A stretch of 64,000 nucleotides of DNA from a virus: the IMG/VR virus record IMGVR_UViG_3300045988_164842, positions 24,293 through 88,292 of that record. One strand, 5' to 3'. Under the pieces are notes generated by a model. That model did not search any database and was not told the origin of the DNA. It worked only from the letters and a program-made list of their open reading frames with translations. Positions within the stretch are counted from its first letter, which is position 1. Each line of letters begins with the position of its first letter. The position numbers and the translations under genes were made by a program. This document shows positions 7,011 through 61,219 of the stretch, piece after piece.

Positions 7011-8114
7011 TTATTCATTTCTTAAGAATATTGGCATTAACACACCTGTGAAGCTTGGTCTTTCATCTGCCGTAAAAATAATTACATTACGGCAATCTTT
7101 GAATGATAACGTTACCTTGTTCGTTTTCATGTGCTTAACAAAATCGAGAAGCGAATCTGCAGCCATACCGATTTTGATTTCACCACCCGAGATATCCGCT
7201 TCGATTTTCTTTTCACAAAGACCTTTTCCTGTTTCATAGCTGAACGTCATCACATTGTCCTCAATAGTACAAATAACCGGAACTTTACTTTCTGCTTTGA
7301 ACAGTTTGGTGAGGTCAACGTATTCCTTAATATCATCTGATTTCACGGTTGAAATAATTTTAACTTCTGATGGAATCCATGCCTCATAGTTAGGGAAATT
7401 TCCTTCTATTAACTTTGAAGACACCTTATAGTTATCACCTGTAAAACAAACCAACTCTCCTGCAAGAGATACTTTGCAAACTCCATCACCGAGAACATTC
7501 AGTAACTGCTTGAGTGCATTCGCCGGCACTATAAATCGACTATCAACCGCTTGCTGTACGGTTGTAGTTTCGAGAGCCATTCTGTATTCGCAACAAGAGA
7601 TGATTGAAAACGTGTTGTTCTCAACTTCAAAGCATTCACCTGTGAGAATACTCTTCAAAGTATCAACTCTTATAGCAAAAAGAGTTGCTTCAAGCATATC
7701 TCTTAATTTCTTTTCTGAAATTTCAAGAACAGGCTTAAAGTTTTCGTAACACGGTTTCTCAATATCGGATACATCAACTGTTTTCATTCCGCAAGTTGTT
7801 TTACCGCCAGTAATAAGAACGTTACCCGTATCGTCAATTGTCAATTCGATAGTTGGTGATTTCAGCTTCTTGAGTATGCCCGTCAAGAGTTTTGCATCGA
7901 GATATACCATATCAAATTTTTCCGAGTTAGGTATGGCAATTTGCATATCTGTTCCAATACAGTCGTCAAAAAGGTCTTTGCCAAAAATGTGAAGCATTTT
8001 GCCGTCTGATTCAATGCCGAGAAAGCCATCACTGTTTTTCGATGGCTTGATTGCTGTCTTTGATACGATTGTTGCGATGTTTGCGAGTTCTTTTCTTTTG
8101 ATTGTGATTTTCAT
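7011..8114 (-). CDS. dnaN: DNA polymerase III beta sliding clamp homolog
   Basis: 367 aa, typical clamp length. Landmarks: MKITIKRKEL start, GNFPNYEAWIP, C-terminal GVLMPIFL. Confidence 0.82.
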   Translation of the reverse strand: MKITIKRKELANIATIVSKTAIKPSKNSDGFLGIESDGKMLHIFGKDLFDDCIGTDMQIAIPNSEKFDMVYLDAKLLTGILKKLKSPTIELTIDDTGNVLITGGKTTCGMKTVDVSDIEKPCYENFKPVLEISEKKLRDMLEATLFAIRVDTLKSILTGECFEVENNTFSIISCCEYRMALETTTVQQAVDSRFIVPANALKQLLNVLGDGVCKVSLAGELVCFTGDNYKVSSKLIEGNFPNYEAWIPSEVKIISTVKSDDIKEYVDLTKLFKAESKVPVICTIEDNVMTFSYETGKGLCEKKIEADISGGEIKIGMAADSLLDFVKHMKTNKVTLSFKDCRNVIIFTADERPSFTGVLMPIFLRNE

Positions 8115-20327: not shown

Positions 20328-20801
20328 TTAAAATGTTCGTTATTTTTTAGGGATATTTCACCCTTAGCGCAACGCACCTATATAGATACGCTCCGTTAAG
20401 GAAGAAATTAGAATACAACCAGCGTATTCTAAAGTCCCTTAACGCCGTGGAATTTTGTCAGCCCCACAGCAGAAAACAGAAACTTTTTTCGCCATATATT
20501 TAAATAGTCTCTATATAATCCGCCAACGTTGCTAAACTTCAAAGGGATTTTAGCAGTTTCTAACAGCAACAAAAATATTGCTGAAAATCCCCATCAACGC
20601 CGAAACACGTCAACTTTTTATATAAATCTATTCATTTTTCAAGTTGCTTTATGGAATTTTCATCCAATAGTGAGTTTCACACTATAAATTAACATTCAAA
20701 ATTAAGTGTTCCAAAAACGCCGTTTTAAATCGCTTTTTCAGAACGTTCCAAAAACGTTCTGACGATTTTTTGAATTATTAAATTATCTTTTCTATGCTTT
20801 T

Positions 20802-20830
20802 ATTATAGCATAGAATTTTATGTTTGTCAA
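20802..20830 (-). promoter_or_regulatory. perfect sigma-70 consensus promoter firing leftward inside the noncoding hub
   Basis: TTGACA (20830-20825), 17 nt, TATAAT (20807-20802) on the minus strand. No ORF lies within about 500 nt downstream. Confidence 0.65.
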
Positions 20831-21093
20831 CCCTTTTTGAAAAATTTTTTTGATTTTTTCAGGGCGTTTGACTCTCCCCATAGCCGCCCGGGTTTTTTGT
20901 TTTCCCTGACTGTGGTTATAGTATACCACGCCCCCACCCTGATTTATACCACTTTAAAATAACATTCTATGAACTTTATATTAATATACAACACTTAGCC
21001 CGTAAAGTGTTAATTATCTATACAGTTGAACGGCTAACCGTTGAATAATACCATATTAATTGCTAATAAAAGTAAAAGCAAGGGTGTTCTTGT

Positions 21094-21122
21094 ATTATAT
21101 CAGAAATAACAATAAATGTAAT
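21094..21122 (-). promoter_or_regulatory. extended -10 promoter firing leftward
   Basis: ATTACA (21122-21117), 17 nt, TGATATAAT (21102-21094) on the minus strand. Confidence 0.45.
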
Positions 21123-21628
21123 TGCTATTTTTTTTGTAATAGGAGGTGAACAAGTGTTAACATTTTCCCAGAGCTGGATTGTACTACTCTAACTAATACA
21201 GTTTATGAACAATTTATGAATTAGTTAAGTTTCAACGATATTTACAATAATAGTAAAATAGATAACTTGTTAATATCTGTAAGACTTGCATAAGGAAAAT
21301 AATAGAAACAACGTGTAATACATATTACACGCGGTTTTAGGCGTATATGGGGCGTGTATTGAAATAACTGTAAAAATAAAGCAGCTTAGAGAACGATACA
21401 GGTATTCAAAAACTCATGTCTTATTTCTCAAATTGAAATCTCTACAAGTACTTCAAAATTTCCACAAATCAAATAAGATTTTTGAGATTATAAGAATAAA
21501 AAATCAGTCTGATACATTTAGGATTTAGGAGTAATCAGTATTGTAAAATGCGTAAAATAAATGATAACTCCGATGGCTTATGGGAAATATTGAATATATA
21601 ATCTTGTTATTATGTTGGCTCGTAAAGA

Positions 21629-21818
21629 GTAATGATTGCAGAGGTATTCAGGAAGTGAGATTAAGAACTATCAGTCTCAAAGGTCTTCCAGAATTGCAGG
21701 TAATATTTTTTTTAAAAAAATACAAATTGGACGTAACGAATTGCAGGAGACTAATAAAAGAGCAGGTCATATATTTCAAAAAATATCACACAAGAAAAGA
21801 AAGTAAGGATTGCAGAAG
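21629..21818. repeat. iteron-like dispersed repeats (4 copies of ATTGCAG core)
   Basis: GTAATGATTGCAGAGG (21629-21644), CCAGAATTGCAGGTAA (core 21693-21699), GTAACGAATTGCAGGAG (21733-21749), GTAAGGATTGCAGAAG (21803-21818). Confidence 0.6.
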
Positions 21819-22057
21819 TCTTTGGAGATTCAGTTCTTACAGGCTTATAAGCTGTGTGTTTGTGTTCTATCGGGAAGTTTTCTGTATCTTGTTTCTGCTT
21901 GGGATTTTTTCTTATGAAAAAATTTTTTCTTGCTTTTTCGGGAGGTTTGCAACATCGAGAGGTAAATTGTAAACTTTCTGTTAAGTATATTGACGTGATA
22001 AACCACGCATTTACGGGCTTTGTGAGCATACAAAAAGTTCCTTAATAATTTGGAAAC

Positions 22058-22086
22058 TTGAGTTTTTGTCAGTTTTGTGATATAAT
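22058..22086 (+). promoter_or_regulatory. strong extended -10 promoter for the rightward arm
   Basis: TTGAGT (22058-22063), 17 nt, TGATATAAT (22078-22086), about 190 nt upstream of the helicase ATG. Confidence 0.65.
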
Positions 22087-22282
22087 AAAAACAGACGAAG
22101 AGAAGAAGCTGACGGAATAGCAACAGAAGTTAGAGAGCTTCTTTTCTTACTTAATGGTTCGTAGGAGTAGAATATAAGGTATAGGTGTTTCCGGCACAAA
22201 AACCTCTACAACCAACGTATCTATGGGCTTTATGAGCATTTTTTTTAAAAACCCTCAGTGTCACATTTGAAAGGAGCATAAA

Positions 22283-23761
22283 ATGACCTATATTTCGCAA
22301 TTAAACTTCAAAAACAACATTGTTCCTCACAAACTCAATTTGCTTTATGCAGGTTGCGGAACAGGAAAGACAGAATGGGCAACAAGAAAAGTGTTTCAGG
22401 ATTTCCCTGACATCAAACCTTGCGAAACACTTCTCGTTGTTCCTAAAACGTGGATTGCAAAACAACAGGCTGAGAAAAGGAATGTCTACAGGTATGTCAG
22501 CTCAGAAAGAGCGATGTCAGATGAAAATAAGAAATGGCGTGACTACTGGAATGGTGTTTCTGATGAAGTTGACAACGAGAATGTTGTCAATGTTTTGACT
22601 TATGCAACCCTTATCAATATTCTTCGCAATCCAGAAAGCAACGGACGTTTACCTTTTGAGAGGATAAAGCTTGTAATCATTGACGAATGTCATTCTCTTT
22701 TTACTGAAACTTACATGACTGATTTGAATGTTATGAATCTTTGGCTTAACATGGCTATCAAAACAACAGATACTTTATTTATCGGTATGAGTGCAACTCC
22801 TATGCTTATAAAAGAGTATGCAGAAAAAGTAATTTGTAGTCCGGTAAATCAGGTCAACAAGGAAGTTATAATGAACTATACAGCAGAAAATCTTATTATA
22901 ACCGACAAAGAAACCATCCCGTATATGCTTCATAGCGGTTTTCTTACAGGCAGAACGCTAATAATGTGCAATTCCCTTGAAGAATGTAAATGTCTTTCGT
23001 ATGTTCTCAGTGACTCTGCTTATATTGTTAGTGAGTACAACAATGAATACGCACCAGACATGGCTGAGATTACAGATTATATTTTAAAGAACAACAGCAT
23101 TCCTGATACATTTAAAGGCAAGAAACTTAAAGTTCTTCTCTCTACGGCTGTCCTTAGAGAGGGGATTACTTTCAAAAAAGATTGTGGTATTGAAAATATA
23201 ATCTGTATGTCGGGTTGTGATGTAAACATTATTCAGATTGCTGGAAGATGCCGCTACAACATCAAAAATCTTATTGTCGTAAAGCCATTGACTATATCGT
23301 CTAATACAATTGATTACGTCAAAAAGAAGGAAATGCAGTTCAGGGATTTTTGTAAAGGCAGGTACACAGATAATGGTTGGTTCGATGGTATAAAACACAT
23401 TCTTTCTTTTAACGATATCAAGAAAATTCAGTATAAAACAAAGGAAGACTTCTTTTGTGGAGATACATATAACATACCAAAAAACAGCAAGGCATTATTA
23501 AAAAAATCAGTTGCTGAAAAATTAAATGCGTACATCGAAAGAAATTTAAAAGGGAAATTCGTAACAGAAAAAGAAAGAAAAGAAGCTGTCAAATTCATGT
23601 GTGAAAACTCAATTCTTTCTGGCGACCCTGACAAAATAACACCACAAGCCTTTTATAAATTCATTGAAACAAATACCCCATACACCTTAGAACCAGAACG
23701 AAAAAGAGTTGATGGCAGATTAAAACGTGGTTGCTCTTTTCGCAAGAAAAGGAGTAAATAA
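22283..23761 (+). CDS. SF2 (DEAD/DEAH-box type) helicase
   Basis: Walker A GCGTGKTEW, DEAH-like box VIIDECHSL; AAAGGAG SD. Confidence 0.8.
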   Translation: MTYISQLNFKNNIVPHKLNLLYAGCGTGKTEWATRKVFQDFPDIKPCETLLVVPKTWIAKQQAEKRNVYRYVSSERAMSDENKKWRDYWNGVSDEVDNENVVNVLTYATLINILRNPESNGRLPFERIKLVIIDECHSLFTETYMTDLNVMNLWLNMAIKTTDTLFIGMSATPMLIKEYAEKVICSPVNQVNKEVIMNYTAENLIITDKETIPYMLHSGFLTGRTLIMCNSLEECKCLSYVLSDSAYIVSEYNNEYAPDMAEITDYILKNNSIPDTFKGKKLKVLLSTAVLREGITFKKDCGIENIICMSGCDVNIIQIAGRCRYNIKNLIVVKPLTISSNTIDYVKKKEMQFRDFCKGRYTDNGWFDGIKHILSFNDIKKIQYKTKEDFFCGDTYNIPKNSKALLKKSVAEKLNAYIERNLKGKFVTEKERKEAVKFMCENSILSGDPDKITPQAFYKFIETNTPYTLEPERKRVDGRLKRGCSFRKKRSK

Positions 23762-24234
23762 TGACTGCGGTACGATTATTTCAGGAAAATGAAGGTCTTG
23801 TTCACTATGTGCTCAATCACTACACACTGAAGCCTTTTTCTTATAAGCTCGGTTATACCTATGAAGACTGGACTTCCGTAGGACGTGAAGGGCTGTGGAA
23901 AGCTTCTAAAGAGTACGTGAGCAAAGATACGACATATGCATTCAGCACAATAGCTTGTAACCACATTCAGAACAACATACGGCAAGAACTAAGAAAGAAA
24001 AGAATTGCCTTGTGTCCTTTAGAAGAAAACATGATAATCCCAAAAGATAGCTTTGACGAAACACTCTTTTCAGTCAAAGAGATTGTAGGCGAAAAAGAGT
24101 ACAATATTTTACTGGACTACTACGGTCATAAATACACTTTCGAGTATTTGAGTGAGAAATACGACATGACAAACGCTCAACTCAAAAAACTTTTGAACAC
24201 ACTTCCGAGAAAAATCAGAAAGGAGTTCTCTTGA
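23761..24234 (+). CDS. sigma-70-family sigma factor (regions 2 and 4 only)
   Basis: ENEGLVHYVLNHY..EDWTSVGREGLWKASKEY..YAFSTIACNHIQNNIRQELRK (region 2) and a C-terminal HTH (region 4). The start overlaps the helicase stop (TAATG). Confidence 0.75.
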   Translation: MTAVRLFQENEGLVHYVLNHYTLKPFSYKLGYTYEDWTSVGREGLWKASKEYVSKDTTYAFSTIACNHIQNNIRQELRKKRIALCPLEENMIIPKDSFDETLFSVKEIVGEKEYNILLDYYGHKYTFEYLSEKYDMTNAQLKKLLNTLPRKIRKEFS

Positions 24235-26928
24235 ATGACTAATAGGAATATCATGGTCTACAAATTTGAAAGTCAGTTTCTCAAAGAGCATAACTATAAG
24301 CTCAATCTTTCCTTTGATGAAGCTGAGAGTTGCGGTCAGATTATCAAGATTGCCGATAATCAGTTTCTAAGAACTATCCGCAGGTTTACACTTCATACTA
24401 TCAATTTTCAGAGAGTTGAAAGACTGTATCACGAAAGAGATATCTTATCCAAGAAAAATTGCGATGAAGAAAGAAGACTGACTGTTACAAGCCGTATTAA
24501 TCGCAGTTTGTTTGTTCCTGAATACATGGAAGTCTCCATGACGACAAATTCTCAGTACAAAGAAATCATCAAAAAGAGAATTACTCTTAATGGCAAAGTG
24601 TATAGAAGACTTTCATGTTCCGCAGGACAAGCAAGGAACGAAACTGTTATCTTTTGTTCTGAAGAAATTATTTCCGATGTGAAGAAAGCTATTGACAATG
24701 ACAGAAAACCTATTCCCGTTGCTCCGTCAAAGTACAACGCCTATTTTGGTTTAGCAGGTTCCGCAACTCAGATTGTCAGTGAGCCAAGGTTCATTGTGGT
24801 GAAAGACTTTGAGAACGAAACATCTTTTAAATGTCATTGGGTGGAAGAAGCAGGCGACAATGAAGACGATATTATTTCCGAAAAGGTGATAACCCAAAAG
24901 ATGAATCGAACAGACGGCATGGGGCTTATATCTCCCAGGCTTGCTAAAAAGTGGGCGAAAGAATTAGACCTTGACTATGTTCCAAGTCAGTTCGGAATAA
25001 GACAAGCTTTTCTCAAAGGTATGTTATGCGTGTTCGATATTCACACTTTCTGTAAAGAAAAGAACCATGGTAACTACATGATAGAAACCGTATATGGCGA
25101 AAAGGTAGACATACGAAATTACGATATTATCTTTTCTGAATCTCAGTTCAAGTTGTGGAATGCGTATGATAATGAAAAAGACTATGCGGATAAATGTCGG
25201 AAGAATAAGCTTTACTGGGGTGTTCCACAATACGCTCCGAAAGAGTGCAAGAACACGCTGAAAATGAATTATCAATTCCTGCAAACGCTTAATATCAAAG
25301 ATGAAGACATTCCTCTCATATGTAATCAAACAGTTGAGTGGATAAGAGGGGTTTCATATGCGAACCCTGCATACATATTTCTGTTTTTCTTAGGGGCAAA
25401 CATAACCGAGCAGAAAATAAAAACGTTTTTGCAGTACCAAGGAAACTGGTGGCTGAAAGCGTTAATAGCAAATCCAGACCTTATGGTTCAGGATAAATAT
25501 ATCCAAAGTCAGATTAAGAGGCTTATAAAGAAAAAAATCCATGACACATACATAGGCGAAATTTTTCTTGAAGGTAATTTCCAGATACTTGTGTCAGACC
25601 CTTATGCATTCATGCAATCAGTGTGTGGTATTACACCTACTGGCTTACTGAAAGAAAATGAATACTACTCAAACTACTGGAATGAACGTGGCGTATCTCT
25701 TGTTGATGGTATGCGTTCCCCTCTCACATTTCGTTCTGAACACGTTTTAATGAATCTTATAAAGAATGATGAAACTGAAAAATGGTACAAACATTGCAAG
25801 ACTGGCGTCATTCTGAACTGGCATGGTCATGATTGCGTAAACTTCGCAGGAAGCGACTTTGACCTTGACATTCTCGCAACCACCTGTAATGATGTTGTTC
25901 TCAGGTCTACATACAAAAACGAGCTTCCTGTAGGGTATGATGTAAGCAAACCTGTAAAGATACTTCCTACGGAAGAAGACCTTATAAAAGCTGACTTCTT
26001 TTCTTTTGGTTCTATCATAGGCAGTATTACAAACAAGAGCAGTAACGCCTATGCATTGCTCGCAAATTTAGAAAGAAACCCTGAAAAGAATAAAGAACAG
26101 ATTCAGATTGTGTATAGCAGGCTTATTCAATGCTGTAAGGCTCAAGGAAAACAAATCGACAAAGCGAAAATAGGTCAAAAGGTTAAAGGTATCCCAAACA
26201 TCTGGATAAAGTATATTCCACATGATGACAGGGATACTGATGAAATTACTCAACAAAAAGACCTTATAAATACTTGCTTACTTGACAAACCTCCTTATTT
26301 TTTTATTTATCGTTATCCTGATTATTACACTAAGTATAGAAAATATATTAAAAATGCTGACGGATATTGCAAAAAGAAGTACCATGCAAGTTTGAATACG
26401 GTTTCTCAGAACCCTGATACAGCGGATAAGAAGAAATTCATTAATAGTTTTTACAAGAAAATGCCTGTGGTCGATAGCCCAAGTTCAATGAATAAGATTT
26501 GCCACTATCTCGAAAACACTGTAATGGATATTCAGAGTGAAACCACCATTAATCCAGATATAAGCAAATATCTTAGAGATAATACCGTGTTTGTATCAAA
26601 GGAGAGGGAAGACGAAATAATTTCAGCCTTTGTTGTCTTTCTTAGCGAAATCAGTACAACTTTAGGAAACAAGCACTCTGATTCGGATATTGTAAAAGTG
26701 TTCCGTGAAATCTACAGAAACTATTGTATGTCTGATGTTGTGAATGTTCTTGTCGATAATTTTTACAACAGCAAAGCTTCAGTCTTGTGGATAGTTATCG
26801 GTAAAAATCTTCTTCATAATCTTTGTGTTAATACAGTTGGAGAGGAAAATGTAATGATACCTTTTCCAGACGAACAAGGTGAAATCGAGTACATGAACAA
26901 AAGATACGGTTGGAGGGTCGTGGAATGA
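24235..26928 (+). CDS. single-subunit two-barrel RNA polymerase candidate (YonO / cellular RdRP-like)
   Basis: 897 aa; ordered motifs GIRQAFLKGMLCVFDI, VDGMRSPLTFRSEHV, NFAGSDFDLDIL (Asp triad codons 25855-25869). Confidence 0.65.
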   Translation: MTNRNIMVYKFESQFLKEHNYKLNLSFDEAESCGQIIKIADNQFLRTIRRFTLHTINFQRVERLYHERDILSKKNCDEERRLTVTSRINRSLFVPEYMEVSMTTNSQYKEIIKKRITLNGKVYRRLSCSAGQARNETVIFCSEEIISDVKKAIDNDRKPIPVAPSKYNAYFGLAGSATQIVSEPRFIVVKDFENETSFKCHWVEEAGDNEDDIISEKVITQKMNRTDGMGLISPRLAKKWAKELDLDYVPSQFGIRQAFLKGMLCVFDIHTFCKEKNHGNYMIETVYGEKVDIRNYDIIFSESQFKLWNAYDNEKDYADKCRKNKLYWGVPQYAPKECKNTLKMNYQFLQTLNIKDEDIPLICNQTVEWIRGVSYANPAYIFLFFLGANITEQKIKTFLQYQGNWWLKALIANPDLMVQDKYIQSQIKRLIKKKIHDTYIGEIFLEGNFQILVSDPYAFMQSVCGITPTGLLKENEYYSNYWNERGVSLVDGMRSPLTFRSEHVLMNLIKNDETEKWYKHCKTGVILNWHGHDCVNFAGSDFDLDILATTCNDVVLRSTYKNELPVGYDVSKPVKILPTEEDLIKADFFSFGSIIGSITNKSSNAYALLANLERNPEKNKEQIQIVYSRLIQCCKAQGKQIDKAKIGQKVKGIPNIWIKYIPHDDRDTDEITQQKDLINTCLLDKPPYFFIYRYPDYYTKYRKYIKNADGYCKKKYHASLNTVSQNPDTADKKKFINSFYKKMPVVDSPSSMNKICHYLENTVMDIQSETTINPDISKYLRDNTVFVSKEREDEIISAFVVFLSEISTTLGNKHSDSDIVKVFREIYRNYCMSDVVNVLVDNFYNSKASVLWIVIGKNLLHNLCVNTVGEENVMIPFPDEQGEIEYMNKRYGWRVVE

Positions 26929-27692
26929 TAGACTTTAAGTATGACGAATACGCATACGCTGAACATATAATCGAGAGTGGCTTTACTTCTCAGCTTTCAA
27001 ACGAGTTAAGAATTGTCGCCACATACTATCGCAGGATTTTCGATTACAAGCAAGTCGAGGTTAAAGCAAAGCTTACAGACTTATGCCGTAAACATATCAA
27101 TTCTTTTCATGTCGGGAACTACTACAAAGCAATCAATAAAGCTATTTCTGTTGCTTTCAAGGACAACGCAAGACTCGTAAAGATAAGAGAGATTCCGATT
27201 TTTCAAAAAGAACTTGACTATATAAACCAACCTGATTTATCCACAAATGAAAAAAGAGTTCTGTTTACGTTGCTTGTAATGCATAAAATCAAAAAAGAAA
27301 GATACCGTCAAATCTACCAAAAGGAAAGTCAAAGCAATGTTTATTTTGCTAAGAACGGTCGCTTCACTGAAATCAAGAAACTTAGCAATATTCCGCAAAG
27401 TCTTGATATCGACCTTGATGTGTTTTACTCTCTTACTTTGAAAGGTTATATCAATCCACTGTATAACGGAAATATTCAACTTCTTTTCCTTGACAAATGT
27501 ATTTCTTCTGAAGCTCCTGTTGCTATGATTTCAGATTTCCGAAACCTCGGCTATAGGTTTGAAATTCTTACAGGCAACAACAAATACATTGTTTGTCAGC
27601 ATTGCGGAATACCTTGCTTGAAAAGGAATAATTCTGCTATCTACTGTTCTGAAAGCTGTTGCTTACAAGCGAAGCAAGGTCAATGTTGTTAA
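26925..27692 (+). CDS. hypothetical protein with C-terminal zinc ribbon (255 aa)
   Basis: ATG 26925 lies 7 nt after GGAGGG and overlaps the RNAP stop (ATGA). C-terminus CQHCGIPC..YCSESCC. Confidence 0.7.
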   Translation: MIDFKYDEYAYAEHIIESGFTSQLSNELRIVATYYRRIFDYKQVEVKAKLTDLCRKHINSFHVGNYYKAINKAISVAFKDNARLVKIREIPIFQKELDYINQPDLSTNEKRVLFTLLVMHKIKKERYRQIYQKESQSNVYFAKNGRFTEIKKLSNIPQSLDIDLDVFYSLTLKGYINPLYNGNIQLLFLDKCISSEAPVAMISDFRNLGYRFEILTGNNKYIVCQHCGIPCLKRNNSAIYCSESCCLQAKQGQCC

Positions 27693-28209: not shown

Positions 28210-28291
28210 GCTACCATGGTGAAATAGGAAGACACAGCGGACTTTAAGTTCGTTGAGGAAACTCATGTCGGTTCAAGTCCGACTGGTGGTT
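28210..28291 (+). tRNA. class II (long variable arm) tRNA with anticodon UUA - ochre (UAA) suppressor type
   Basis: Hand-folded. Acceptor GCTACCA/TGGTGGT (2 G-U pairs); U8, A14, G18G19; D stem GTG/CAC. Anticodon stem GCGGA/TTCGT with loop CTTTAAG (TTA at 28244-28246). Variable arm TGAG-GAAA-CTCA; T arm GTCGG-TTCAAGT-CCGAC. No encoded CCA. Confidence 0.65.
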
Positions 28292-28319
28292 CTTAGATTT
28301 AAGAAAGGAAGTTCGTGTT

Positions 28320-28495: not shown

Positions 28496-28810
28496 ATGAC
28501 CCAGAAAGAATTTGTAGAAGCTGTTCAGGAAACACTCAAGAGAGAAAACTATAAAGTTTCTCAGGTTTCCTTAAACGCTCTTGTAAATGCAATAGGAGAA
28601 ACAATAGTACATTGTATCGCAAATGGAGAGAACGTTCGTATACCTTATGTAGGCAACTTCTCCGCCAAGAAAAGAAAAGGTTCAAAAACTGTCTGCCATT
28701 TTGGCGAAAACATTGGCAAGGTTTTTGAAGTTCCTGCAAAGATGAAGCCTAACTTTTCTCCGGCAAAAGCATACACAGATGTATGTAATGAAATGAAGTG
28801 TGAGGAATAA
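28496..28810 (+). CDS. HU/IHF-family DNA-binding protein
   Basis: MTQKEFVEAVQETL..SLNALVNAIGETI..GENVRIPYVGNFSAKKR..PAKMKPNFSPAKA, the typical HU pattern. Confidence 0.8.
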   Translation: MTQKEFVEAVQETLKRENYKVSQVSLNALVNAIGETIVHCIANGENVRIPYVGNFSAKKRKGSKTVCHFGENIGKVFEVPAKMKPNFSPAKAYTDVCNEMKCEE

Positions 28811-29955
28811 TGGCTACTCAGGCGTTGATTGGTGGTAATCGAAAAAGAGTGGTATCGAGCAAGTGTAGTATGTGTGGAAAGTCTTATACAAACCAAGAAG
28901 ATAATTTCCCGTATACTGCTTCTGTTCTTTACAAGCACAATAACTACCGTGCAACTATCTGCTACAATTGCCTTGCGAATGAATTGTATCCATACTACTT
29001 CAAAGAATTTGGTAACGCAAATGAAACTATGCGTAGGATATGTATGCATATTGACGTTTATTATAGTGATACTATCGTAAACACATCGGCTGTAGCAAAG
29101 AAAAGCAAACCTATAGAAAAAATAAAGGCTTACATCTCTCATGCAAACCTTGTTTCTTATAAAGGGAAAACTTTCGACACAACAATTGACGAAGAAGAGG
29201 GTTACACATATGATAAAGATGATGTTCGTACATCTCTTACACTTGTAAACAAAAGAAAGATGGCAACTCAGATTACATCACTAACTTCTGAAAATGATAA
29301 TCTCAAAGCTGAAATCACTTCCCTTAAAGATGAAGTTGACACTTTGAGAAAATCTGCCGAGTTGAAAAACCTTGATTCAGATGAAGCTCAGAACTTCAAG
29401 AATTGGGGTGAGGGGTTATCACCCTCGGATTATAAGGTTCTCAATGTTCAATACCAAGAGTGGATAGAGAAAAACATTGTGGAAGATAAAACAAGAGAAG
29501 TGCTTGTAAGGAAAATTTGTATCCTTTCTTTACTTAGCGATAAAGCTTTGAAAGAGGGTAATTTTAAAGAATACAACGATATTAATAAATGCTTTGTAGA
29601 AGCTTTAAAACTTGCTTGTCTTTCACCACAACAGATGGACGATATGAAAACAAGTGAGGGTGTGACTTACGGCACACTGATTAAAAGGTTTGAACAAGAT
29701 GAACCGTTACCTGAAATCTCTGATAAGTTCAAAGATGTGGACGGCATTGTGAGATATACCACTGTTTATTTTATCGGACATTTATGTGCTATGCTCGGAA
29801 TAAAGAACCGTTTCTCTGATGATTACCATAAAGAAATGGAAAAGTACAAAACCATGCTTGACGGTTTTGAGAATTCCACATCAGAGGAAGTTTTTGACTA
29901 TTTATCTGAGAAGGGTTTTCCGACCGAGATAGGTGGTGAGGACAATTCTCAGTAA
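28810..29955 (+). CDS. hypothetical protein, possible small terminase / packaging factor
   Basis: 381 aa; N-terminal CSMCGK..CYNC zinc finger and a central coiled coil. The call rests only on position directly upstream of terL. Confidence 0.4.
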   Translation: MATQALIGGNRKRVVSSKCSMCGKSYTNQEDNFPYTASVLYKHNNYRATICYNCLANELYPYYFKEFGNANETMRRICMHIDVYYSDTIVNTSAVAKKSKPIEKIKAYISHANLVSYKGKTFDTTIDEEEGYTYDKDDVRTSLTLVNKRKMATQITSLTSENDNLKAEITSLKDEVDTLRKSAELKNLDSDEAQNFKNWGEGLSPSDYKVLNVQYQEWIEKNIVEDKTREVLVRKICILSLLSDKALKEGNFKEYNDINKCFVEALKLACLSPQQMDDMKTSEGVTYGTLIKRFEQDEPLPEISDKFKDVDGIVRYTTVYFIGHLCAMLGIKNRFSDDYHKEMEKYKTMLDGFENSTSEEVFDYLSEKGFPTEIGGEDNSQ

Positions 29956-31672
29956 TCTCGATATTGTATATTTGAAATGCAAAAAAGGTCTCGGTAAATG
30001 GACGAAATTCTACAGACATAACCCACATAGGCTTGCTTTAGAATACTTTGGTATGAAGTGGCTTACACCTATGCAGTGTATTCTAATTGACATTGTTCTG
30101 AAATTTCCGTATCTGATAATGATAGCTTCACGAGGCATGGGCAAGACAATTCTTCTTGCCGTATGTATCTGTATAAAAGCTGTTCTCTATCCGGGAATAA
30201 AAATTGTTATATCGGCAGGTAAACGCCGACAGAGTCTTGAAATTATTTTGAAAATTCAGAGTTTCTGTATGGATAGTGAAAATCTCAGGCGTGAAATCGA
30301 AGATATAAAGGTTGGTCTTGCTGATGGTGGTATTGTATTCAAGAATGGTTCAAGTGTAACAATCGCTACTGCTTCTGAAAATGCTCGTGCAATAAGAGCG
30401 AACTGGATTATTTATGATGAGTTTGTCAAGATACCAAAGATAATCATAGACACTGTTATAAGAAAATTCAAAGCCGGAGTTCGTGTACCTGTCTTTAAAA
30501 CAAAACCTGAATATAAAAATTACCCAGATGAAGAAAACTGTGAAACTTATATTTCGTCTGCTACATATAAACATCATTGGGCGTGGTTAAAGTTCAAAGA
30601 CTTTTTTAATCTCATGGTTCAAGGAAAAGACTATGCGGTCTTAGGTTTTCCATGGCAATTTGCGGTTGCTCAGGGTTACTATCCTTTAAAGCAAGTTATA
30701 GACGAAATGAATGAAGCAAGCTTTAATAGTGTTTCATGGTCTATGGAAATGGATAGTCTGTTCTATGGTGAAAGCGAAAACGCTTTCTTTTCATTCAACG
30801 AGTTCAGCAAGAATAGGGAAATCGTTTTGCCTGTATATCCAAAAGAATGTTATAAAGACCTAAGAGATAGTAAGTTTCGATATATCGAAAAGCAAGATGG
30901 TGAAATCCGCCTACTTGTAATGGACGTAGCTACGCAAGGTGGCGACAAAAACGACAACTCGGCTTATGTTCTGTATAGGCTTATCCCCGATGAGAACAAC
31001 CAGTATACCCGTTATATTTCCTATATAGAAGCTGTAAATGGAGGACACTCCCTTGACCAAGCTTTGAGGTTCAAATATCTTTACTATAATCTCGATGTTG
31101 ACTATGTAGGTATTGATGCTTTAGGTGTCGGTACTGGTGTATTCGACAATCTCGTTATCGAAATCAGAGATGAAGAAAAGGATATTGTGTATCCTGCATG
31201 GAACACGGTTGATGATGATAAAATGTCAGGGCGTTGTAAGATTAATGACGCTCCCAAAATTATCTATTCAATCAAAGCAAGTCAAATATTTAATAGTGAA
31301 TGTGCTGTTCGCCTTAAAGATGATTTGCGTAGAGGAAAAGTCAAATTGCTCATAGGAGAGGAATCAGGTTCTGAAGAACTTGAAAAGATAAAAGGATTTG
31401 AAGAACTTTCTATTGAAACACAAACTCTTTTCAGGCTTCCCTATATTCAGACAACCGCTCTGGTGAATGAAGCCGTCAATCTTTCTTATGAAGTTCAGAA
31501 TAACAACATCAAAGTAAAAGAGGCTTCGGGTATGAGGAAGGATAGATATTCTGCGTGTTCATACGGAAATCAACTTGCTTCTGAAATTGAAAAAAATTTA
31601 TACTTACCAAACGAAGCAACAAGTCTTAGTTCGCTTATAAGAATGAGGACACCTGTGTACGAAAGGCGGTGA
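29933..31672 (+). CDS. terL: terminase large subunit
   Basis: Walker A-like ASRGMGKT, Walker B WIIYDEF, C-terminal nuclease-size domain. Start uncertain (GTG 29933 or TTG 29972). Confidence 0.8.
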   Translation: MVRTILSNLDIVYLKCKKGLGKWTKFYRHNPHRLALEYFGMKWLTPMQCILIDIVLKFPYLIMIASRGMGKTILLAVCICIKAVLYPGIKIVISAGKRRQSLEIILKIQSFCMDSENLRREIEDIKVGLADGGIVFKNGSSVTIATASENARAIRANWIIYDEFVKIPKIIIDTVIRKFKAGVRVPVFKTKPEYKNYPDEENCETYISSATYKHHWAWLKFKDFFNLMVQGKDYAVLGFPWQFAVAQGYYPLKQVIDEMNEASFNSVSWSMEMDSLFYGESENAFFSFNEFSKNREIVLPVYPKECYKDLRDSKFRYIEKQDGEIRLLVMDVATQGGDKNDNSAYVLYRLIPDENNQYTRYISYIEAVNGGHSLDQALRFKYLYYNLDVDYVGIDALGVGTGVFDNLVIEIRDEEKDIVYPAWNTVDDDKMSGRCKINDAPKIIYSIKASQIFNSECAVRLKDDLRRGKVKLLIGEESGSEELEKIKGFEELSIETQTLFRLPYIQTTALVNEAVNLSYEVQNNNIKVKEASGMRKDRYSACSYGNQLASEIEKNLYLPNEATSLSSLIRMRTPVYERR

Positions 31673-33168
31673 GATGTATAGCAAAGAAAATAAAAAAGAA
31701 TAATGACGTAGACAACCTTGAAAATGGGTTGCCTTTTTCTGTTTATGAGAAACTGCAAAAGTTAAATATTCAGGACGCAAATAGCGGCTACACCCCTTTT
31801 GAACATCATCGTTGCGGTTTCTTCCCTATGAAAAGAGATAAGCTTTTCAGATTACTGAAAAATCCATACGTCAATTTCAAGGCTCTTATTAATCTGAGCA
31901 TTGATTTGTATTACGGAAATATCATGTATCGGCGGCTTTGTGACACTTTAGCTGATATGATGTTGTATTCATATACAATCGCACCTACAGGAAATGCTTA
32001 TGAAAGAACGCCTGCGAATATAGCAAAGTGGCAAAAGGCTTATGCTACAGTCACAAAGAAACTCGAAGCTATGAATATCCAGCACAATGCAAATACAATA
32101 GCAAGAGTGGTGGTTCGTGAGGGTTGTTATTATGGTGTAAGCATAAGTAGTAAAATAAGTAACTTTATGCTGTACAGGTTTCCACATGAGTATTGCAAGA
32201 TAACTTCTTTCGAGGACGGTGTTCCTTTATACGCCTTAGATTTAACGTATTTTTCAGACAAAGAAATTCTGATTAATTCTATAGGTGGAGAACTTCTTGA
32301 AGCTTATACAGCTTTCAAAACAAATCAAAGAGAGAGATGGTATGAAATCAGCTCAAAGATTTCTGTCTGTATACTTGCTGATAACAGCACCCTCAGACCT
32401 TTGCCATTGTTTTGTGGTATTTTCCCAGACCTTTATTATCTCGATGATTATAAAGACCTTGCGAAGAACAAGAGAGAGATTGACCTCTATAAGTTAATTT
32501 CTATGAAAATTCCTCTTGACTCTAAAGGAAATCTTATACTGCAAAATAAGTTTCTTACAGATTGCTACGACCAGACGGCAAACCAACTTCCCTCACAGGT
32601 AGGGTTGTCTATGTCACCTTGCAGTATTGACACAGTAGATTTCGATTCCTCGAACTCTACGACTGAGGACGTTACAGACAAAGCTACGAGGGATTTATAT
32701 AGTACCGCTGGTATATCCTCTTTTCTTTTTAATAATGAGAATGCGAGTAGTAGTGCGTTACTTCAAAGTGTGAAAAACATGATGTCTTTTGTCAGACCCA
32801 TTATGAAGAATATTGAAAACTGGATTAATCGTTGTTTGAAACTGCAAGCAGGGGTAAACTTCAAGGTAGTCTTTCAGTATGTTTCTATCTATACAAGAGA
32901 AACATATATTGCCGAACTAAGAAAAGATATGCAATATGGTTTACCTGTAAAGAGTGCTTTAGCTACATTGGAAGATATTCCGGCAACAGACCTGACAGGC
33001 ATGATGTTTCTTGAAAATAACGTGCTTGACATTCGCAGTCAACTTACGCCACCTGCAACGTCAGCTACTACCACTGTTGATGATATACAATCAGGTCGCC
33101 CTGAAAGCGATATGCTGTCCGATAGTGGTGAGCAAACAAGAGAAAGCGAGAGTAATGCCGAAAGATGA
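31669..33168 (+). CDS. portal protein candidate
   Basis: 499 aa immediately after terL; acidic/Ser-rich C-terminal tail. The start (GTG) is poorly supported. Confidence 0.6.
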   Translation: MRCIAKKIKKNNDVDNLENGLPFSVYEKLQKLNIQDANSGYTPFEHHRCGFFPMKRDKLFRLLKNPYVNFKALINLSIDLYYGNIMYRRLCDTLADMMLYSYTIAPTGNAYERTPANIAKWQKAYATVTKKLEAMNIQHNANTIARVVVREGCYYGVSISSKISNFMLYRFPHEYCKITSFEDGVPLYALDLTYFSDKEILINSIGGELLEAYTAFKTNQRERWYEISSKISVCILADNSTLRPLPLFCGIFPDLYYLDDYKDLAKNKREIDLYKLISMKIPLDSKGNLILQNKFLTDCYDQTANQLPSQVGLSMSPCSIDTVDFDSSNSTTEDVTDKATRDLYSTAGISSFLFNNENASSSALLQSVKNMMSFVRPIMKNIENWINRCLKLQAGVNFKVVFQYVSIYTRETYIAELRKDMQYGLPVKSALATLEDIPATDLTGMMFLENNVLDIRSQLTPPATSATTTVDDIQSGRPESDMLSDSGEQTRESESNAER

Positions 33169-41873: not shown

Positions 41874-44800
41874 ATGGCAAAAACTCCGAATACTTCTGAA
41901 ATGGAAATTGTAGTAGGTGTTGATACTCCTGTCACAACGGATTTAATGCAAGAACAACTTAATGAAATTGCTAAAAAAATAAAAATAAAAGTCAACGCTG
42001 AACTTTCTCAAAACGCTTTAAAGGGCATTCAAGAGAGTGTTTCAAAAGCGACTAAAAATGTTCAGGTAAGTATAACCCCTACAACAAATCAGCAGACAAT
42101 AACGAGAAATATTCAGCAGGCTGTTTCTACTGCTTCAAAAACTATAGCAAGTAATCCTATCACTGTTCCTGTTAAGGGAACGCTTATTTCTTCATCGAGT
42201 ACTTTTCTACAAGGAGAACTTTCAAGCCAGGATTTGAAATATATCAACAGTAAGACCCAAACAACCACTACTGATATGTATAGGCTTGATGATGTAGGGA
42301 AGCTTTATCTTTCAGGTCAAAAAGTTGTAGAAAACTACAAACAGCAACAAAAAGCTGTTGAAACTCTCAGCCAGAAAATTGACACATATACCAAAAAGAT
42401 TGAAGAACTTAAATCAAAAAACGCTTCACTAATCGCAGGAAGCAGAGAACTACAGCAGATTGTTTCCAAGCTAAACACTTACCCTGCACAGCTTCAGTCA
42501 GAAGAAGGGCTTGCTTTACGAGTTAAGAGATATGAGGAGTTACAGCGTGGTATTGCTAAGATTAAGAATACACAGGCGAATAACTCAAATATCGCAAATC
42601 AAGAAAAAGCTATTACTCAACTTACTTCAAAATATGCTACGTTACAGCAAACTCTTCAATCAACGACTAAAGTTTCAGTAACAAGAGGAGAACAATCCGC
42701 TGTAGATAAGCTGAATGCGAAAATACAAGCTATCGGAAAGTCTTTAGCGGTAGTCGAATCGGAAACAAAGAACAGACATCTTGTCGATATAAGTACACTA
42801 AAATCGGATATTGAAATTGCCGAAAGAGAAATCACCAGATATAAAACTTTAGTAGAACAAATCAATAGTACCGTCACGCCTGTAGCTTTAGGGCTTAATG
42901 CAACAGGAAAAAAAGTATTAGAGAGCAATCCAAATCTGAAAGCAAGTTTCGATAGTGCGTTCAAACGTTATCAGAATCTTACAAGCAATCCTACTGCCTC
43001 CTTTGCGACTACCGATATTCAGAAACTTATTTCCGACTTTCAGAAACTGAAAACTTCTTTGCAAGGCGGTTATGATGATATCTTTAATTCAAAAGATATC
43101 GGAAGTATTTCATCAGTTTATGATAAACTGGAAGAAGCTATGAAAAAGTATTCTTCCGCAAAACAAAATCAGTTATCTCTTTCTGCAAAAAATAAAGCGT
43201 CTATCGACTCTGAAATTCAAAAGTATGACACGCTTATTCAGACTTATGAAAGAGTTATTCAGACACAGGGACAAATCCCTGCAAGAGAAGAACGATTATC
43301 TTCTCTCAGACAAACTTTAACTGCGAATAGAGATGAAGCTGTTAATCGCAATAGAAACAATGCTCTCAGTGTTATTTCTCAAATGTCAAGGGGAACGTCT
43401 ATGTTTCTCAACGACAAAGCTGTTAATAAGTATTCCACGCTTCCAGAAGTTCAGCAATTAAAACAGCAATTTTCTGATATCCGGGTAGAATATGAAAACC
43501 TCAGAAATCAGCTTCAAAGTGGTTCTTTATCGGCTGATGGTCTTATACAAATCAACAATCAACTCTTACAGCTAAGGGAGCGTTTTCTTTCAGTTTCGTC
43601 AGCAGGAGAAACTCTCAAAACAAAGCTGAGAGCGAGTTCCGAAACTTTCATTGACCTACAGTATAAAATTCAGCAGGCGCAGTTTGCTATTCAAAAGCTT
43701 GAGCAAAACACAAATTGGGGTTTTGTAAAAGAGTATGGTTCAAGAATTTCTCAACTGAAAACACAGCTTTCCTTAATGTCGCCTGAAACGTCAAGCCTTG
43801 CTGAAATTGAACAACTTCAAAGAAACATCAAAATCCTTACAAAAGAAGCTCAGCTCGCAGGTGTTACTGGTGAAGGGACGATAACAAAGATTAAGAACGC
43901 CCTCAGTAAATTCACTCGATGGTTCGGCGTTTCTTGGGTTGTTACGACCATAGTATCACAGGTAAGAGAAGCTATTGTTCAGCTTAAAGAAGTTGACACA
44001 CTTCTCACTGAAATCTCAAAGACATCTGAACGTAGTGCTGAAAGCTTGCTTGAACTCGGAAAGAAGTCATTTTCGGAAGCAAATAAGTACGGTGCTACTA
44101 TCACGGGTTATCTTGAAGGTGTCCGTGAAATGTCCCGTGCAGGTTTCGGCGAAGGACAATCAGAAGAACTTGGTCGTTTAAGTTTGCTTGCTCAGAGTGC
44201 AGGCGACATGACCGCAGACCTCGCAAACCAGTATCTTATAGCTACAAACTTTGCTTATGGTCTTGGTGGTTCAGTGGAAAAGCTCAACGCTATACTGGAC
44301 GCACAGAACCAGATTACAAACCGCAATGCTGTAAACATGACGGAATTTGCGGAAGCTACTAAAATCGCAGGAAATCAGCTCGCAAACTCAAATATCGACA
44401 TTCAGCAATCATCTGCTCTCCTTGCTACTGGTCTTATCACTACACAGCAAGGCGGACAGGAAGTCGGTAGGGCTATCAAAGGTATCATCATGAACCTTCA
44501 ATCTGTTTCAGGTGAAACCGGAGATGGAGATGTTCTCAACGAAGAGAGCTTTGCAAAAGCTGAAAAACGTCTTGCTTCCGTAGGCGTTGCTATGGAAACT
44601 GTGGAGAATGGAGCAACACATCTCCGAAGTGCTATTTCTATTCTCAAAGACCTTGCAGAAGTTTACAACTCACTCCCAGAGGATAGTCCTGAAAGAGCCG
44701 GAATTATTGAAGACCTCGGCGGTAAATTCCGTGGTAACGTGCTTTCATCTATTCTCTCAAACTGGGATACATATGAAAAAGTCCTCAAAGACTATGAAAA

Positions 44801-59986: not shown

Positions 59987-61219
59987 TTACGCTACATTTA
60001 CTACAAACGGATGTAACACGCACCCTCTATCCCATTTTATTGGGACTACTTTCTTTAAAATCTGATAAGCACCATTCAAGTCAGCGTTTATTGTAATGCC
60101 TGAATTGGAAACAAACAACCCTCTGTGAACACGTCTTGATTTATTGTAATTCTCTTTTACAGGTTCTTCATTGTCAATGAAACTCGTACCGCTTGTATAG
60201 CTTTCTTCGGTTGTAACAACTGCTATACCATATTCTTCTGCTTTGTACTCTATCATCTCAATAAGTCTTGCAAAAGGTATCTGAACAAAATGCTGATTTA
60301 TTCTCTTTGAAAGGTTTACATTTTGTTTCCATTCTTTATTTTTGCCAATAATGATTGTGCAAATATCGTGTTTCAAACAGTAGTCAATGATGTATTTGCT
60401 TGCTTTATGTAAATAATCATCAATCTTAGAATTTCTCTTTTCCGTCAATCTGTCCATTCTTTTTGAATATTCACTGTTGTTCATTCTTTTAGCGATTTCT
60501 CTATAGTGACTGATTTTCTTATTGTAATGTTGATTGATAGATTTTAAGGGCTTTCCATTGATTATAAAAGCTTTTTCGCCTGCATTATTGCACACTGTTG
60601 CAAGATTATCTACACCGATATCAATGCCTATATATCTTTGATTATCTGATTTCTTTTCCGGAACATTGATGTTATATACCAACTCTGCAATAATTCTGTT
60701 CCTTTTTGGAATAAATCTGATTTGTTGAAAGGAAGCAAAGTTTTCTTTCTTTATAAATCTTGGTATAAGTGTAAAACCTTTAAATGTTTTAGGAAAATGA
60801 AGACTACCGTTTCTTAATTTGCAGTTCTGGTTAGTTAAGATTAGAAGAAAGTTTCCGTTTTTCTTTAAATATTTAGGAAGCTTTGGTCTTCCTAAATATT
60901 TATCTTTGTTCTTACTCCAGTCTTTGATACTTGCAAAGAACGCTTTCCAGTTACTATCAAGCACTCTCAATATCTGTTGAGCCGACTGTGCTGTAGGCAT
61001 TTCTTTGTAGTCGGGATATTCTTCATCGGCTTTTAGAAGCTTGTCAAGTTCCGCATAACGTATCCATTTACTATTATCTTGACTTGTGAAAGCCTGCCTG
61101 ACAAGATAGTTCGCATGATTGTACAGGTTTTTAGATTTGTGGCAAAAATCAATCAGCATAGAAAAGAAAGCATTTGAAGATTTAATTATATGCTTTTCAA
61201 CTCTTGTCTGAATCGACAT
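59987..61219 (-). CDS. tnpB: TnpB (IS200/IS605-IS607 OrfB, RuvC-like RNA-guided nuclease family)
   Basis: 410 aa; RuvC motifs IGIDIGVDNLA (D), VVTTEESYTS (E), INADLNGAYQI (D). The usual CxxC..CxxC zinc finger between E and D is absent. Confidence 0.85.
   Translation of the reverse strand: MSIQTRVEKHIIKSSNAFFSMLIDFCHKSKNLYNHANYLVRQAFTSQDNSKWIRYAELDKLLKADEEYPDYKEMPTAQSAQQILRVLDSNWKAFFASIKDWSKNKDKYLGRPKLPKYLKKNGNFLLILTNQNCKLRNGSLHFPKTFKGFTLIPRFIKKENFASFQQIRFIPKRNRIIAELVYNINVPEKKSDNQRYIGIDIGVDNLATVCNNAGEKAFIINGKPLKSINQHYNKKISHYREIAKRMNNSEYSKRMDRLTEKRNSKIDDYLHKASKYIIDYCLKHDICTIIIGKNKEWKQNVNLSKRINQHFVQIPFARLIEMIEYKAEEYGIAVVTTEESYTSGTSFIDNEEPVKENYNKSRRVHRGLFVSNSGITINADLNGAYQILKKVVPIKWDRGCVLHPFVVNVA

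Follow-up and report, generated by a model that had tools for sequence, protein, structure and literature searches.

The 897-residue open reading frame (ORF) at positions 24235-26928 of the phage DNA examined here raises the question of whether a protein with an altered catalytic loop, DFDLD, is an RNA polymerase and, if it is, which template and which genes it serves. The window, as we call the whole stretch analyzed, comprises 64,000 nucleotides (nt) of the IMG/VR virus record IMGVR_UViG_3300045988_164842 (positions 24,293 to 88,292). The first-pass annotation of this DNA had proposed that the ORF encodes a candidate single-subunit two-barrel RNA polymerase of the YonO and cellular RNA-dependent RNA polymerase (RdRP) family. 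Taking observed and deduced parts together, we regard the product as probably the catalytic chain of a phage YonO-type two-barrel RNA polymerase. The gene is best read, by sequence and position, as an orthologue of SPbeta yonO, and its product is most likely a DNA-dependent RNA polymerase for the phage late genes.

The ORF is present exactly as annotated, with an AAAGGAG ribosome-binding site 9 nt 5′ of its ATG. The three motifs on which the proposal was founded are also in place and in order: motif 1, GIRQAFLKGMLCVFDI (residues 254-269, nt 24994-25041); motif 2, VDGMRSPLTFRSEHV (residues 490-504, nt 25702-25746); and motif 3, NFAGSDFDLDIL (residues 536-547, nt 25840-25875). The DFDLD loop covers residues 541-545, its codons falling precisely at nt 25855-25869. 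A single correction concerns the distance between motif 2 and the Asp loop, which is 46-47 residues (R494 to D541) and not about 40. The features of the gene are as follows.

24235-26928, forward strand: polymerase, 897 residues, ATG start; probable YonO-type two-barrel RNA polymerase catalytic chain
24913-25017, forward strand: first-barrel (beta-like) motifs, with D227 in RTDGMG and R256 and K261 in GIRQAFLKG
25714-25722, forward strand: R494-S-P496, equivalent to QDE-1 R962/P964 and Rpb1 R446/P448; aligns with YonO LRSPHLF
25855-25869, forward strand: catalytic Asp triad loop D541-F-D543-L-D545, predicted to bind Mg2+; triad invariant in 196 of 196 aligned relatives, in a block modeled at a predicted local distance difference test score (pLDDT) of about 93

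Two-barrel RNA polymerases share eight invariant residues (Ruprich-Robert & Thuriaux 2010, PMC2919709), which in QDE-1 are D709, R738, K743, R962, P964, D1007, D1009 and D1011 (PMC2919709). The window polymerase has an equivalent of each, namely D227, R256, K261, R494, P496, D541, D543 and D545, with D227 (codon 24913-24915), R256 (25000-25002) and K261 (25015-25017) corresponding to QDE-1 D709, R738 and K743 (PMC2919709). The R-to-K spacing of five and the R-x-P pattern likewise match QDE-1 R738/K743 and R962/P964, and the first-barrel motifs align with TDGCG and VRLPWVKG of YonO by BLASTP and with SDGIG...IRYGGYKG of RDR2 in a profile search. All eight residues are invariant both in a 64-sequence alignment and in 196 aligned relatives, a set that takes in YonO, Perkons, 0305phi8-36, PMBT24 and TR-TP1. 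To the active site the second barrel thus contributes the triad D541, D543 and D545 and the first barrel D227; the basic R256, K261 and R494, together with P496, complete it. Judged from sequence, the three-motif match is real and far beyond chance, given the Pfam RdRP match, the in-register BLASTP alignment with YonO and the residue invariance.

Family searches converge on a single assignment. The Pfam RdRP profile (PF05183) matched residues 57-658 (E 2.5e-19; 69.9 bits against a gathering score of 23.8; profile positions 15-539 of 582), and PF05183 is a precomputed domain on most database homologues among the matches listed. RdRP was the sole family found: scans of Pfam, NCBIfam and PADLOC returned no primase, helicase or other unrelated family, the NCBIfam and PADLOC scans giving no match to the polymerase. 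The protein also matches PHROG 8308 (E 2e-126), whose function is not assigned in PHROGs. BLASTP against YonO gave an E value of 3e-33 with 27% identity over 538 residues and all catalytic motifs in register, pairing TDGMG with TDGCG, IRQAFLKG with VRLPWVKG, MRSPLTFRSEHV with LRSPHLFREHGV and SDFDLD with FDNDGD. By tblastn, every one of the SPbeta-group yonO genes matched residues 82-600 at 26-27% identity (E about 1e-26). Relatives were found by tblastn in 41 GenBank phage records, with Bacillus phage BUCT082 (Spbetavirus) at 43% over the full length and Clostridium phage c-st at 30%. The BUCT082 protein (UAW07825), annotated "hypothetical protein" and uncharacterized, is the closest GenBank relative and has the loop DFDYD. 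Megablast of 24 kb against GenBank phages gave no match, indicating that no close sequenced relative is present there. The family is nonetheless large. An exhaustive search returned 1220 clusters at 50% identity with E values up to 1e-3, 808 of them with E values up to 1e-10, and a word-indexed database search gave at least 999 matches.

The predicted fold agrees with this assignment. An AlphaFold2 model of the polymerase (alignment A1) had a mean pLDDT of 90.1 and a predicted template modeling score of 0.86, with strand-rich blocks at residues 186-266 and 443-550 and a helical C-terminal third. In a Foldseek search of the PDB the top 21 matches were all cellular RdRPs (E 7e-18 to 2e-14, probability 1.00), namely maize and Arabidopsis RDR2 and QDE-1 from two fungi, with template modeling (TM) scores of 0.40-0.49 over 650-950 columns. 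The strand clusters of the model and its whole-chain superposition on QDE-1 and RDR2 point to two beta-barrel domains. Thus the placement in the YonO and cellular RdRP family stands on a Pfam match above the gathering score, YonO homology and the QDE-1/RDR2 fold match. Neither a fold lacking the barrels nor a confident match to an unrelated family, the outcomes named in the first-pass annotation as telling against its proposal, was encountered. Its statement that the remaining roughly 800 residues are unrecognizable does not hold, as the chain can be aligned with the cellular RdRP fold over about 840-950 columns.

QDE-1 and RDR2 (PDB 2J7N, 7Y7T, 7ROZ and 7W82) share with the window polymerase the PF05183 domain, the eight invariant residues and an SDGIG...IRxxxxKG segment alignable by profile, the sequence-profile search of the PDB having given weak RDR2 matches (E 0.027) on the correct motif. 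They differ in being eukaryotic enzymes of RNA silencing, and thus in biological context, and in being templated by RNA or by RNA and DNA; their loop is DYDGD or DLDGD, and identity is 13-15%. Multisubunit RNA polymerases resemble the protein in their two-barrel catalytic core and Asp triad logic, yet the window polymerase is not a member of the beta/beta-prime group, and beta-prime gave nothing significant in the PDB search (E ≥ 0.057). No YonO structure was among the PDB matches. In BFVD the best Foldseek matches were phage "RdRP" models (E 4e-47 and 1e-36), while regions of crAss-like virion polymerases matched weakly, at about 1e-6, with phi14:2 at E 0.035. As a separate observation, phmmer weakly matched residues 10-114 (nt 24262-24576, forward strand) to the C-terminal part of fungal PAN3 (4czx_B, E 0.002, 19.6 bits). 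This was the sole match in a single-sequence search of the PDB and was taken as probably due to chance. In the model, these residues fold with high confidence.

The genomic setting bears on which genes the enzyme would serve. The exact polymerase protein is encoded on two independent ENA metagenome contigs of ~88.2 kb, and two contigs of near-identical size suggest a complete phage genome. The phage is a temperate, double-stranded DNA gut phage of about 88 kb, whose other genes include those for an integrase, NrdD, a clamp and a replication initiator. The window has a strand switch at ~20-22 kb; the genes to its left run leftward and include NrdD, thymidylate synthase/kinase, a sliding-clamp-like protein and the integrase. 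Downstream of the polymerase lie the following rightward features.

28210-28292, forward strand: tRNA, ARAGORN "tRNA-Stop (tta)"; Rfam tRNA 43.4 bits
28496-28810, forward strand: HU/IHF-like DNA-binding protein, the yonN equivalent (PF00216; NCBIfam IHF/HU)
28810-29955, forward strand: YonG-like protein (PF27269 and PF27316, YonG_N/C), 1.9 kb downstream of the polymerase
29933-31672, forward strand: terminase large subunit (Terminase_6N; PHROG terminase)
31669-33168, forward strand: 499-residue ORF at the position of the PMBT24 portal gene, known by position alone
41874-48551, forward strand: 2225-residue ORF in the rightward block

SPbeta has the gene order polymerase, HU, (yonK/J), yonG, terminase, which recurs in BUCT082, PMBT24, c-st, Perkons and TR-TP1, with HU at the same place after the polymerase in SPbeta and these five phages. 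The late/structural block opens at 28810-33168, again in the order of PMBT24 and of yonG in SPbeta. Because the SPbeta gene order is kept, the gene is orthologous to yonO in position as well as in sequence, and the direct homology together with the SPbeta-like arrangement of the late region is the ground for the orthology proposed above. Both YonO and the window polymerase are single chains with both barrels, encoded ahead of HU and a yonG/terminase late block in Firmicutes phages. They differ in that identity is ~27% and confined to residues 82-600, the loop is DNDGD in YonO, and the window lineage has extra helicase and sigma-like genes upstream. The polymerase therefore combines a QDE-1/RDR2/YonO fold and a complete two-metal active site with a yonO-like position in a temperate phage.

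Template, timing and target genes we infer, mainly from YonO. In SPbeta, the Asp triad of YonO is essential, and deletion of yonO silences 37 late genes (Forrest et al. 2017, PMC5467207), which form one operon starting upstream of yonK (PMC5467207); SPbeta YonO uses a single promoter. The window polymerase is the third gene of a translationally coupled block of four.

22058-22086, forward strand: candidate host sigma-A-type promoter, TTGAGT-17-TATAAT with TG, ~195 nt upstream of the helicase gene
22283-23761, forward strand: superfamily 2 (SF2; DEAD/ResIII) helicase (Pfam ResIII and DEAD, E about 1e-11), first gene of the coupled block
23761-24234, forward strand: sigma-70-family protein of extracytoplasmic function (ECF) size, 157 residues; its stop TGA directly abuts the polymerase ATG
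26925-27692, forward strand: partner protein, 255 residues; helical N-terminal part and C-terminal four-Cys Zn ribbon (C224, C227, C241, C245)

The junctions in this block are TAATG (the overlap joining the helicase and sigma genes), TGA-ATG and ATGA, each with a Shine-Dalgarno sequence. We propose that the polymerase would be made early by host RNA polymerase from the sigma-A-type promoter. This candidate is identified by its consensus match alone (10/12 plus an extended -10), the total number of such sites in the region not exceeding that in shuffled sequences. A search for rightward terminator-like sites found none between 22.6 and 30.5 kb. The polymerase would then transcribe the phage double-stranded DNA, as YonO does, its likely target being the rightward late/structural block, and late expression would become independent of host RNA polymerase.

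The structural matches raise a different reading of the template, namely that the enzyme is an RNA-templated or dual polymerase like QDE-1, which would not transcribe the late genes but copy phage or host transcripts into double-stranded or small RNAs that act in regulation or counter-defense. Its closest structural matches are indeed RNA-silencing RdRPs, the Pfam family is named RdRP, relatives in Enterocloster and Thomasclavelia phages are labeled "RNA-dependent RNA polymerase" in GenBank, and QDE-1 has both activities (PMC9508822). These labels, however, derive from the Pfam name and not from experiments, and YonO, the sole characterized phage member, is DNA-dependent and drives late genes (PMC5467207). 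The yonO synteny is conserved, and PADLOC found no defense or anti-defense family match for the polymerase. We consider an RNA-templated role unlikely.

The helicase two genes upstream in the same coupled block suggested, in turn, a replication primase-like enzyme laying down RNA primers on phage DNA unwound by its SF2 neighbor. Similar helicases are encoded upstream of the polymerase in two other related loci, L073 and L079 (L-numbers denote related polymerase loci), and QDE-1 acting on single-stranded DNA needs a helicase and RPA. By contrast, the upstream gene is not conserved, being CoiA-like, a methylase or another gene elsewhere, whereas the conserved neighbors are HU and the late block; the clamp and initiator lie in other, leftward clusters; and YonO deletion affects late transcription (PMC5467207). 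A priming role is thus very unlikely, and late transcription of DNA remains the reading we prefer. The helicase was also considered as a conserved partner of the polymerase and was rejected, as the upstream genes elsewhere are CoiA-like, methylase, helicase or unassigned.

A protein of 500-650 residues resembling the CoiA N-terminal/nuclease region lies directly upstream of the polymerase in L001 (1716-3263), L012 (4417-5991), L039, L044, L047 and L048. In related phages the CoiA-like genes often overlap the polymerase start, where the window has its helicase and sigma-like pair; BUCT082 likewise differs from the window in having a CoiA-like nuclease protein upstream.

The most conspicuous departure from the canonical loop is the Gly-to-Leu change at position 4 (Leu544), noted in the first-pass annotation and genuine. 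Among the 196 relatives this position holds L in 63, Y in 45, F in 43, G in 27, M in 13, A in 2, S in 2 and H in 1, so that L, F, Y or M is present in 164. All sequences at least 50% identical to the window polymerase have one of these four residues, while Gly dominates in distant members, which comprise YonO, Perkons, PMBT24, TR-TP1, 0305phi8-36 and most sequences below 40% identity. In a neighbor-joining tree rooted on 0305phi8-36, Gly is the root state; within the clade containing the window polymerase (170 sequences), 163 members have L, F, Y, M or H, all bulky residues, and the other 7 have Gly. Because the root is Gly and 163 of 170 clade members are bulky, the Leu of DFDLD is, on this tree, not an error but a clade-wide, old and selected trait of the dominant branch, with Gly ancestral.

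Before the crAss-like enzyme gp66, Gly occupied position 4 in every RNA polymerase studied (bioRxiv 10.1101/2020.03.07.982082). The crAss-like virion polymerases carry DFDID or DFDVD, and gp66 of phi14:2 (DFDID) is an active DNA-dependent RNA polymerase, although its loop crystallized in a conformation unable to bind Mg (bioRxiv 10.1101/2020.03.07.982082). Gly is therefore not strictly defining at this position. The former universality of Gly and the inability of the crystallized gp66 loop to bind Mg could nevertheless be taken to mean that Leu inactivated the window enzyme, so that the gene is decayed or its product is a scaffold without catalytic function. We regard this as most improbable, since the eight catalytic residues are 100% invariant while 164 of 196 relatives have L, F, Y or M, which indicates strong purifying selection on catalysis; moreover, gp66 with Ile is active, and introns in relatives target exactly the Asp-triad motif, as is typical of essential conserved sites. 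By the gp66 precedent, the Leu would leave catalysis intact, though it may alter the resting geometry of the loop.

The likeness to gp66 has its limits. Both are QDE-1-like single-chain two-barrel phage proteins with a non-Gly loop, but gp66 has 2180 residues and Ile/Val rather than Leu/Phe/Tyr/Met, and it enters the cell as an injected virion component that carries out early transcription. Whereas crAss-like virion polymerases are proteins of ~2000 residues encoded in a structural/injection block, the window polymerase has 897 residues, and its gene lies ahead of that for the terminase, together with regulatory genes.

In contrast to the upstream genes, the gene that follows the polymerase is conserved. 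The partner ATG (26925) overlaps the polymerase stop as ATGA and has a ribosome-binding site. Among 88 related loci with enough sequence, 86 have an ORF of at least 150 residues 3′ of the polymerase; 76 of these 86 overlap or abut the polymerase stop, most commonly by 4 nt, 85 have the C-terminal four-Cys pattern, and 69 are detected by phmmer with the window partner as query. BUCT082 has the same arrangement, with a partner orthologue (28% identity, E 2e-20) and then HU. The family evolves fast, with 20-37% identity within the alignment and 16 matches in the word-indexed search. The AlphaFold2 model of the partner (pLDDT 88) has a helical N-terminal part, helix-strand elements and the Zn ribbon. 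The partner matched no Pfam family and, by sequence, nothing in the PDB beyond generic Zn ribbons; its best Foldseek match had an E value of 0.88, TFIIB and winged-helix proteins ranking at the top without significance.

The Zn ribbon provides a connection to YonO. With 839 residues, YonO ends in CxxCG...YCxxC and a basic tail, whereas the longer window polymerase lacks a C-terminal Zn ribbon, and the equivalent of the YonO tail module sits on the separate 255-residue protein. By hhalign, the Zn ribbon and basic tail of the partner family matched YonO residues 799-835 (probability 91%, E 1e-6). YonO and Perkons have the tail fused to the polymerase and no partner gene downstream; conversely, the C-terminal Cys cluster is absent from the window polymerase and from all 164 polymerases whose position 4 is L, F, Y or M. 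This complementary distribution suggests functional coupling. The partner would probably act with the polymerase in DNA binding or initiation, its Zn ribbon and basic tail being the same module as the fused YonO C-terminus. The first-pass description as single-subunit is therefore sound as regards the one catalytic chain, but the label may be too strong in view of the conserved, coupled Zn-ribbon gene.

A bolder proposal is that polymerase and partner form a two-protein holoenzyme in which the partner is the DNA-binding or initiation (promoter-specificity) factor, YonO having captured its tail, and the bulky loop residue marks an off-state. In such an enzyme the bulky residue of DFD[LFYM]D would hold the active site off until partner or DNA engages, as proposed for crAss gp66. 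We put this forward tentatively and consider it doubtful as a whole. If true, it would explain how promoters are found by YonO-type polymerases, a question that the 2017 work left open, and would define a minimal two-barrel transcription system.

The gene immediately upstream offers another candidate specificity factor. The sigma-like protein passes TIGR02937 over its full length (49.4 bits against a cutoff of 42.9) and matches the PHROG 351 sigma factor (E 3.7e-12). Since its stop abuts the polymerase ATG in the same frame, and since it is not known how YonO finds promoters (PMC5467207), the polymerase might be a sigma-dependent two-barrel single-chain enzyme with this protein as its promoter-specificity subunit. 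By phmmer, however, the sigma gene adjoins the polymerase in just 5 of 92 loci, all of them this phage and one relative with an 82% identical polymerase (L007); ten upstream ORFs of similar size in other lineages had no sigma match, and no homologue was found in GenBank phages. The docking sites for sigma regions 2 and 4 are the beta-prime clamp helices and the beta flap. YonO-like enzymes lack the flap insert (PMC7824862), and phage sigma factors normally redirect host RNA polymerase. A sigma-dependent phage enzyme is accordingly improbable, and redirecting host RNA polymerase is a likelier role for the sigma-like protein than serving the phage enzyme. As a conserved partner it was rejected on the 5 of 92 loci and the lack of GenBank phage homologues. 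The sigma-like and polymerase ORFs share a reading frame with one TGA between them, so that read-through would give a 1055-residue fusion; because the two ORFs in L007 are 7 nt apart and out of frame, the shared frame is probably a coincidence.

Several points weigh against late transcription of DNA by this polymerase and its partner. Identity to YonO is just ~27% over 538 residues, and the C-terminal 300 residues cannot be aligned with it by sequence. The structurally closest solved enzymes, QDE-1 and RDR2, use RNA as well as DNA templates. No promoter for the phage polymerase was identified, and the few rightward intergenic regions contain no repeated motif. Given the history of Gly at position 4 and the gp66 loop that does not bind Mg, activity of a DFDLD enzyme cannot be assumed. 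As for the partner, its link to the polymerase consists of gene order and a 37-column Zn-ribbon match that could be a generic motif: hmmsearch of the partner profile in polymerases found nothing, and hhalign alone detects the tail match. The segment shared with the YonO tail is short and Cys-rich, so the coupling is something we infer.

The polymerase family is large and already described, and the identification of the gene is ordinary, as standard Pfam annotation labels it. YonO-type proteins were described in 2003-2010 and characterized in 2017, and Iyer et al. 2021 listed the c-st and 0305phi8-36 members. In the literature consulted we found no mention of either the non-Gly loop or the split Zn-ribbon partner of this branch. 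Cellular RNA polymerases have no smaller known relatives than the YonO-type enzymes, just one of which has been studied. The window gene shows the family to be abundant in gut Firmicutes phages. The dominant branch differs from YonO in two testable respects, the bulky loop residue and the translationally coupled Zn-ribbon protein. With a Zn-ribbon tail that matches the one fused to the C-terminus of YonO, the partner is a concrete candidate for an initiation or promoter-recognition factor of these minimal polymerases.

The polymerase gene is uninterrupted in the window, while in many relatives it is interrupted exactly inside the Asp-triad codons (query residues 541-545). Such inserts occur in L004 (c-st; 7644-7965), L052, L055, L073, L074, L076, L078, L079 and L081-L083, and a second insertion site lies at the invariant QID|K, residues 642/643, in L046, L055, L074 and L078. 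The inserts are 0.25-1.45 kb long, with the exons in different frames. Rfam at the gathering threshold found no introns in the split relatives; sub-threshold group I matches were obtained for the c-st insert (RF00028, 25.4 bits, E 1.8e-4) and L076 (18.9 bits, E 0.042). Many database polymerase proteins end at residue 541, and the inserts probably explain the annotation of c-st YonO as separate N-terminal and C-terminal fragments.

The tRNA at 28210-28292, between the partner and HU genes, has the anticodon UUA and is a predicted ochre (UAA) suppressor. Its orthologue in L007 (7722-7804) is a tRNA-Leu with a UAA anticodon; relative to it, the anticodon in the window has changed from TAA to TTA and two acceptor-stem pairs become G.U. 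The same suppressor-type sequence is present in a second sample (L006). TAA stops end 19 of 26 leftward and 13 of 31 rightward genes. Read-through of TAA into the next genes was rejected as a purpose of this tRNA, because only 3 of the 13 TAA-ending rightward genes are in frame with the next, about the chance expectation. Genes for tRNAs cluster near the polymerase/HU region in many related loci, and near this region of related phages Rfam matches above gathering were found to drum (L052:12485-12638), DUF3800-XI (L033:8394-8474), skipping-rope (L004:11938-11998) and RAGATH-18 (L076:5526-5586), structured RNAs whose functions are not known. In SPbeta, an unannotated non-coding RNA has been reported at the start of the YonO-dependent operon.

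Two further parts of the window deserve mention. The 1.9 kb between the divergent clusters (20377-22283; 34% GC) is largely non-coding, contains several short inverted repeats and a perfect leftward sigma-A consensus promoter (20830-20802, TTGACA-17-TATAAT with TG), and may be a regulatory or origin region. In the right-hand leftward cluster, the reverse-strand gene at 59987-61219, which adjoins a replication-initiator-like gene (61914-63716), matches the PHROG 506 "transposase" (E 1e-50) and may represent an insertion sequence inside the phage.

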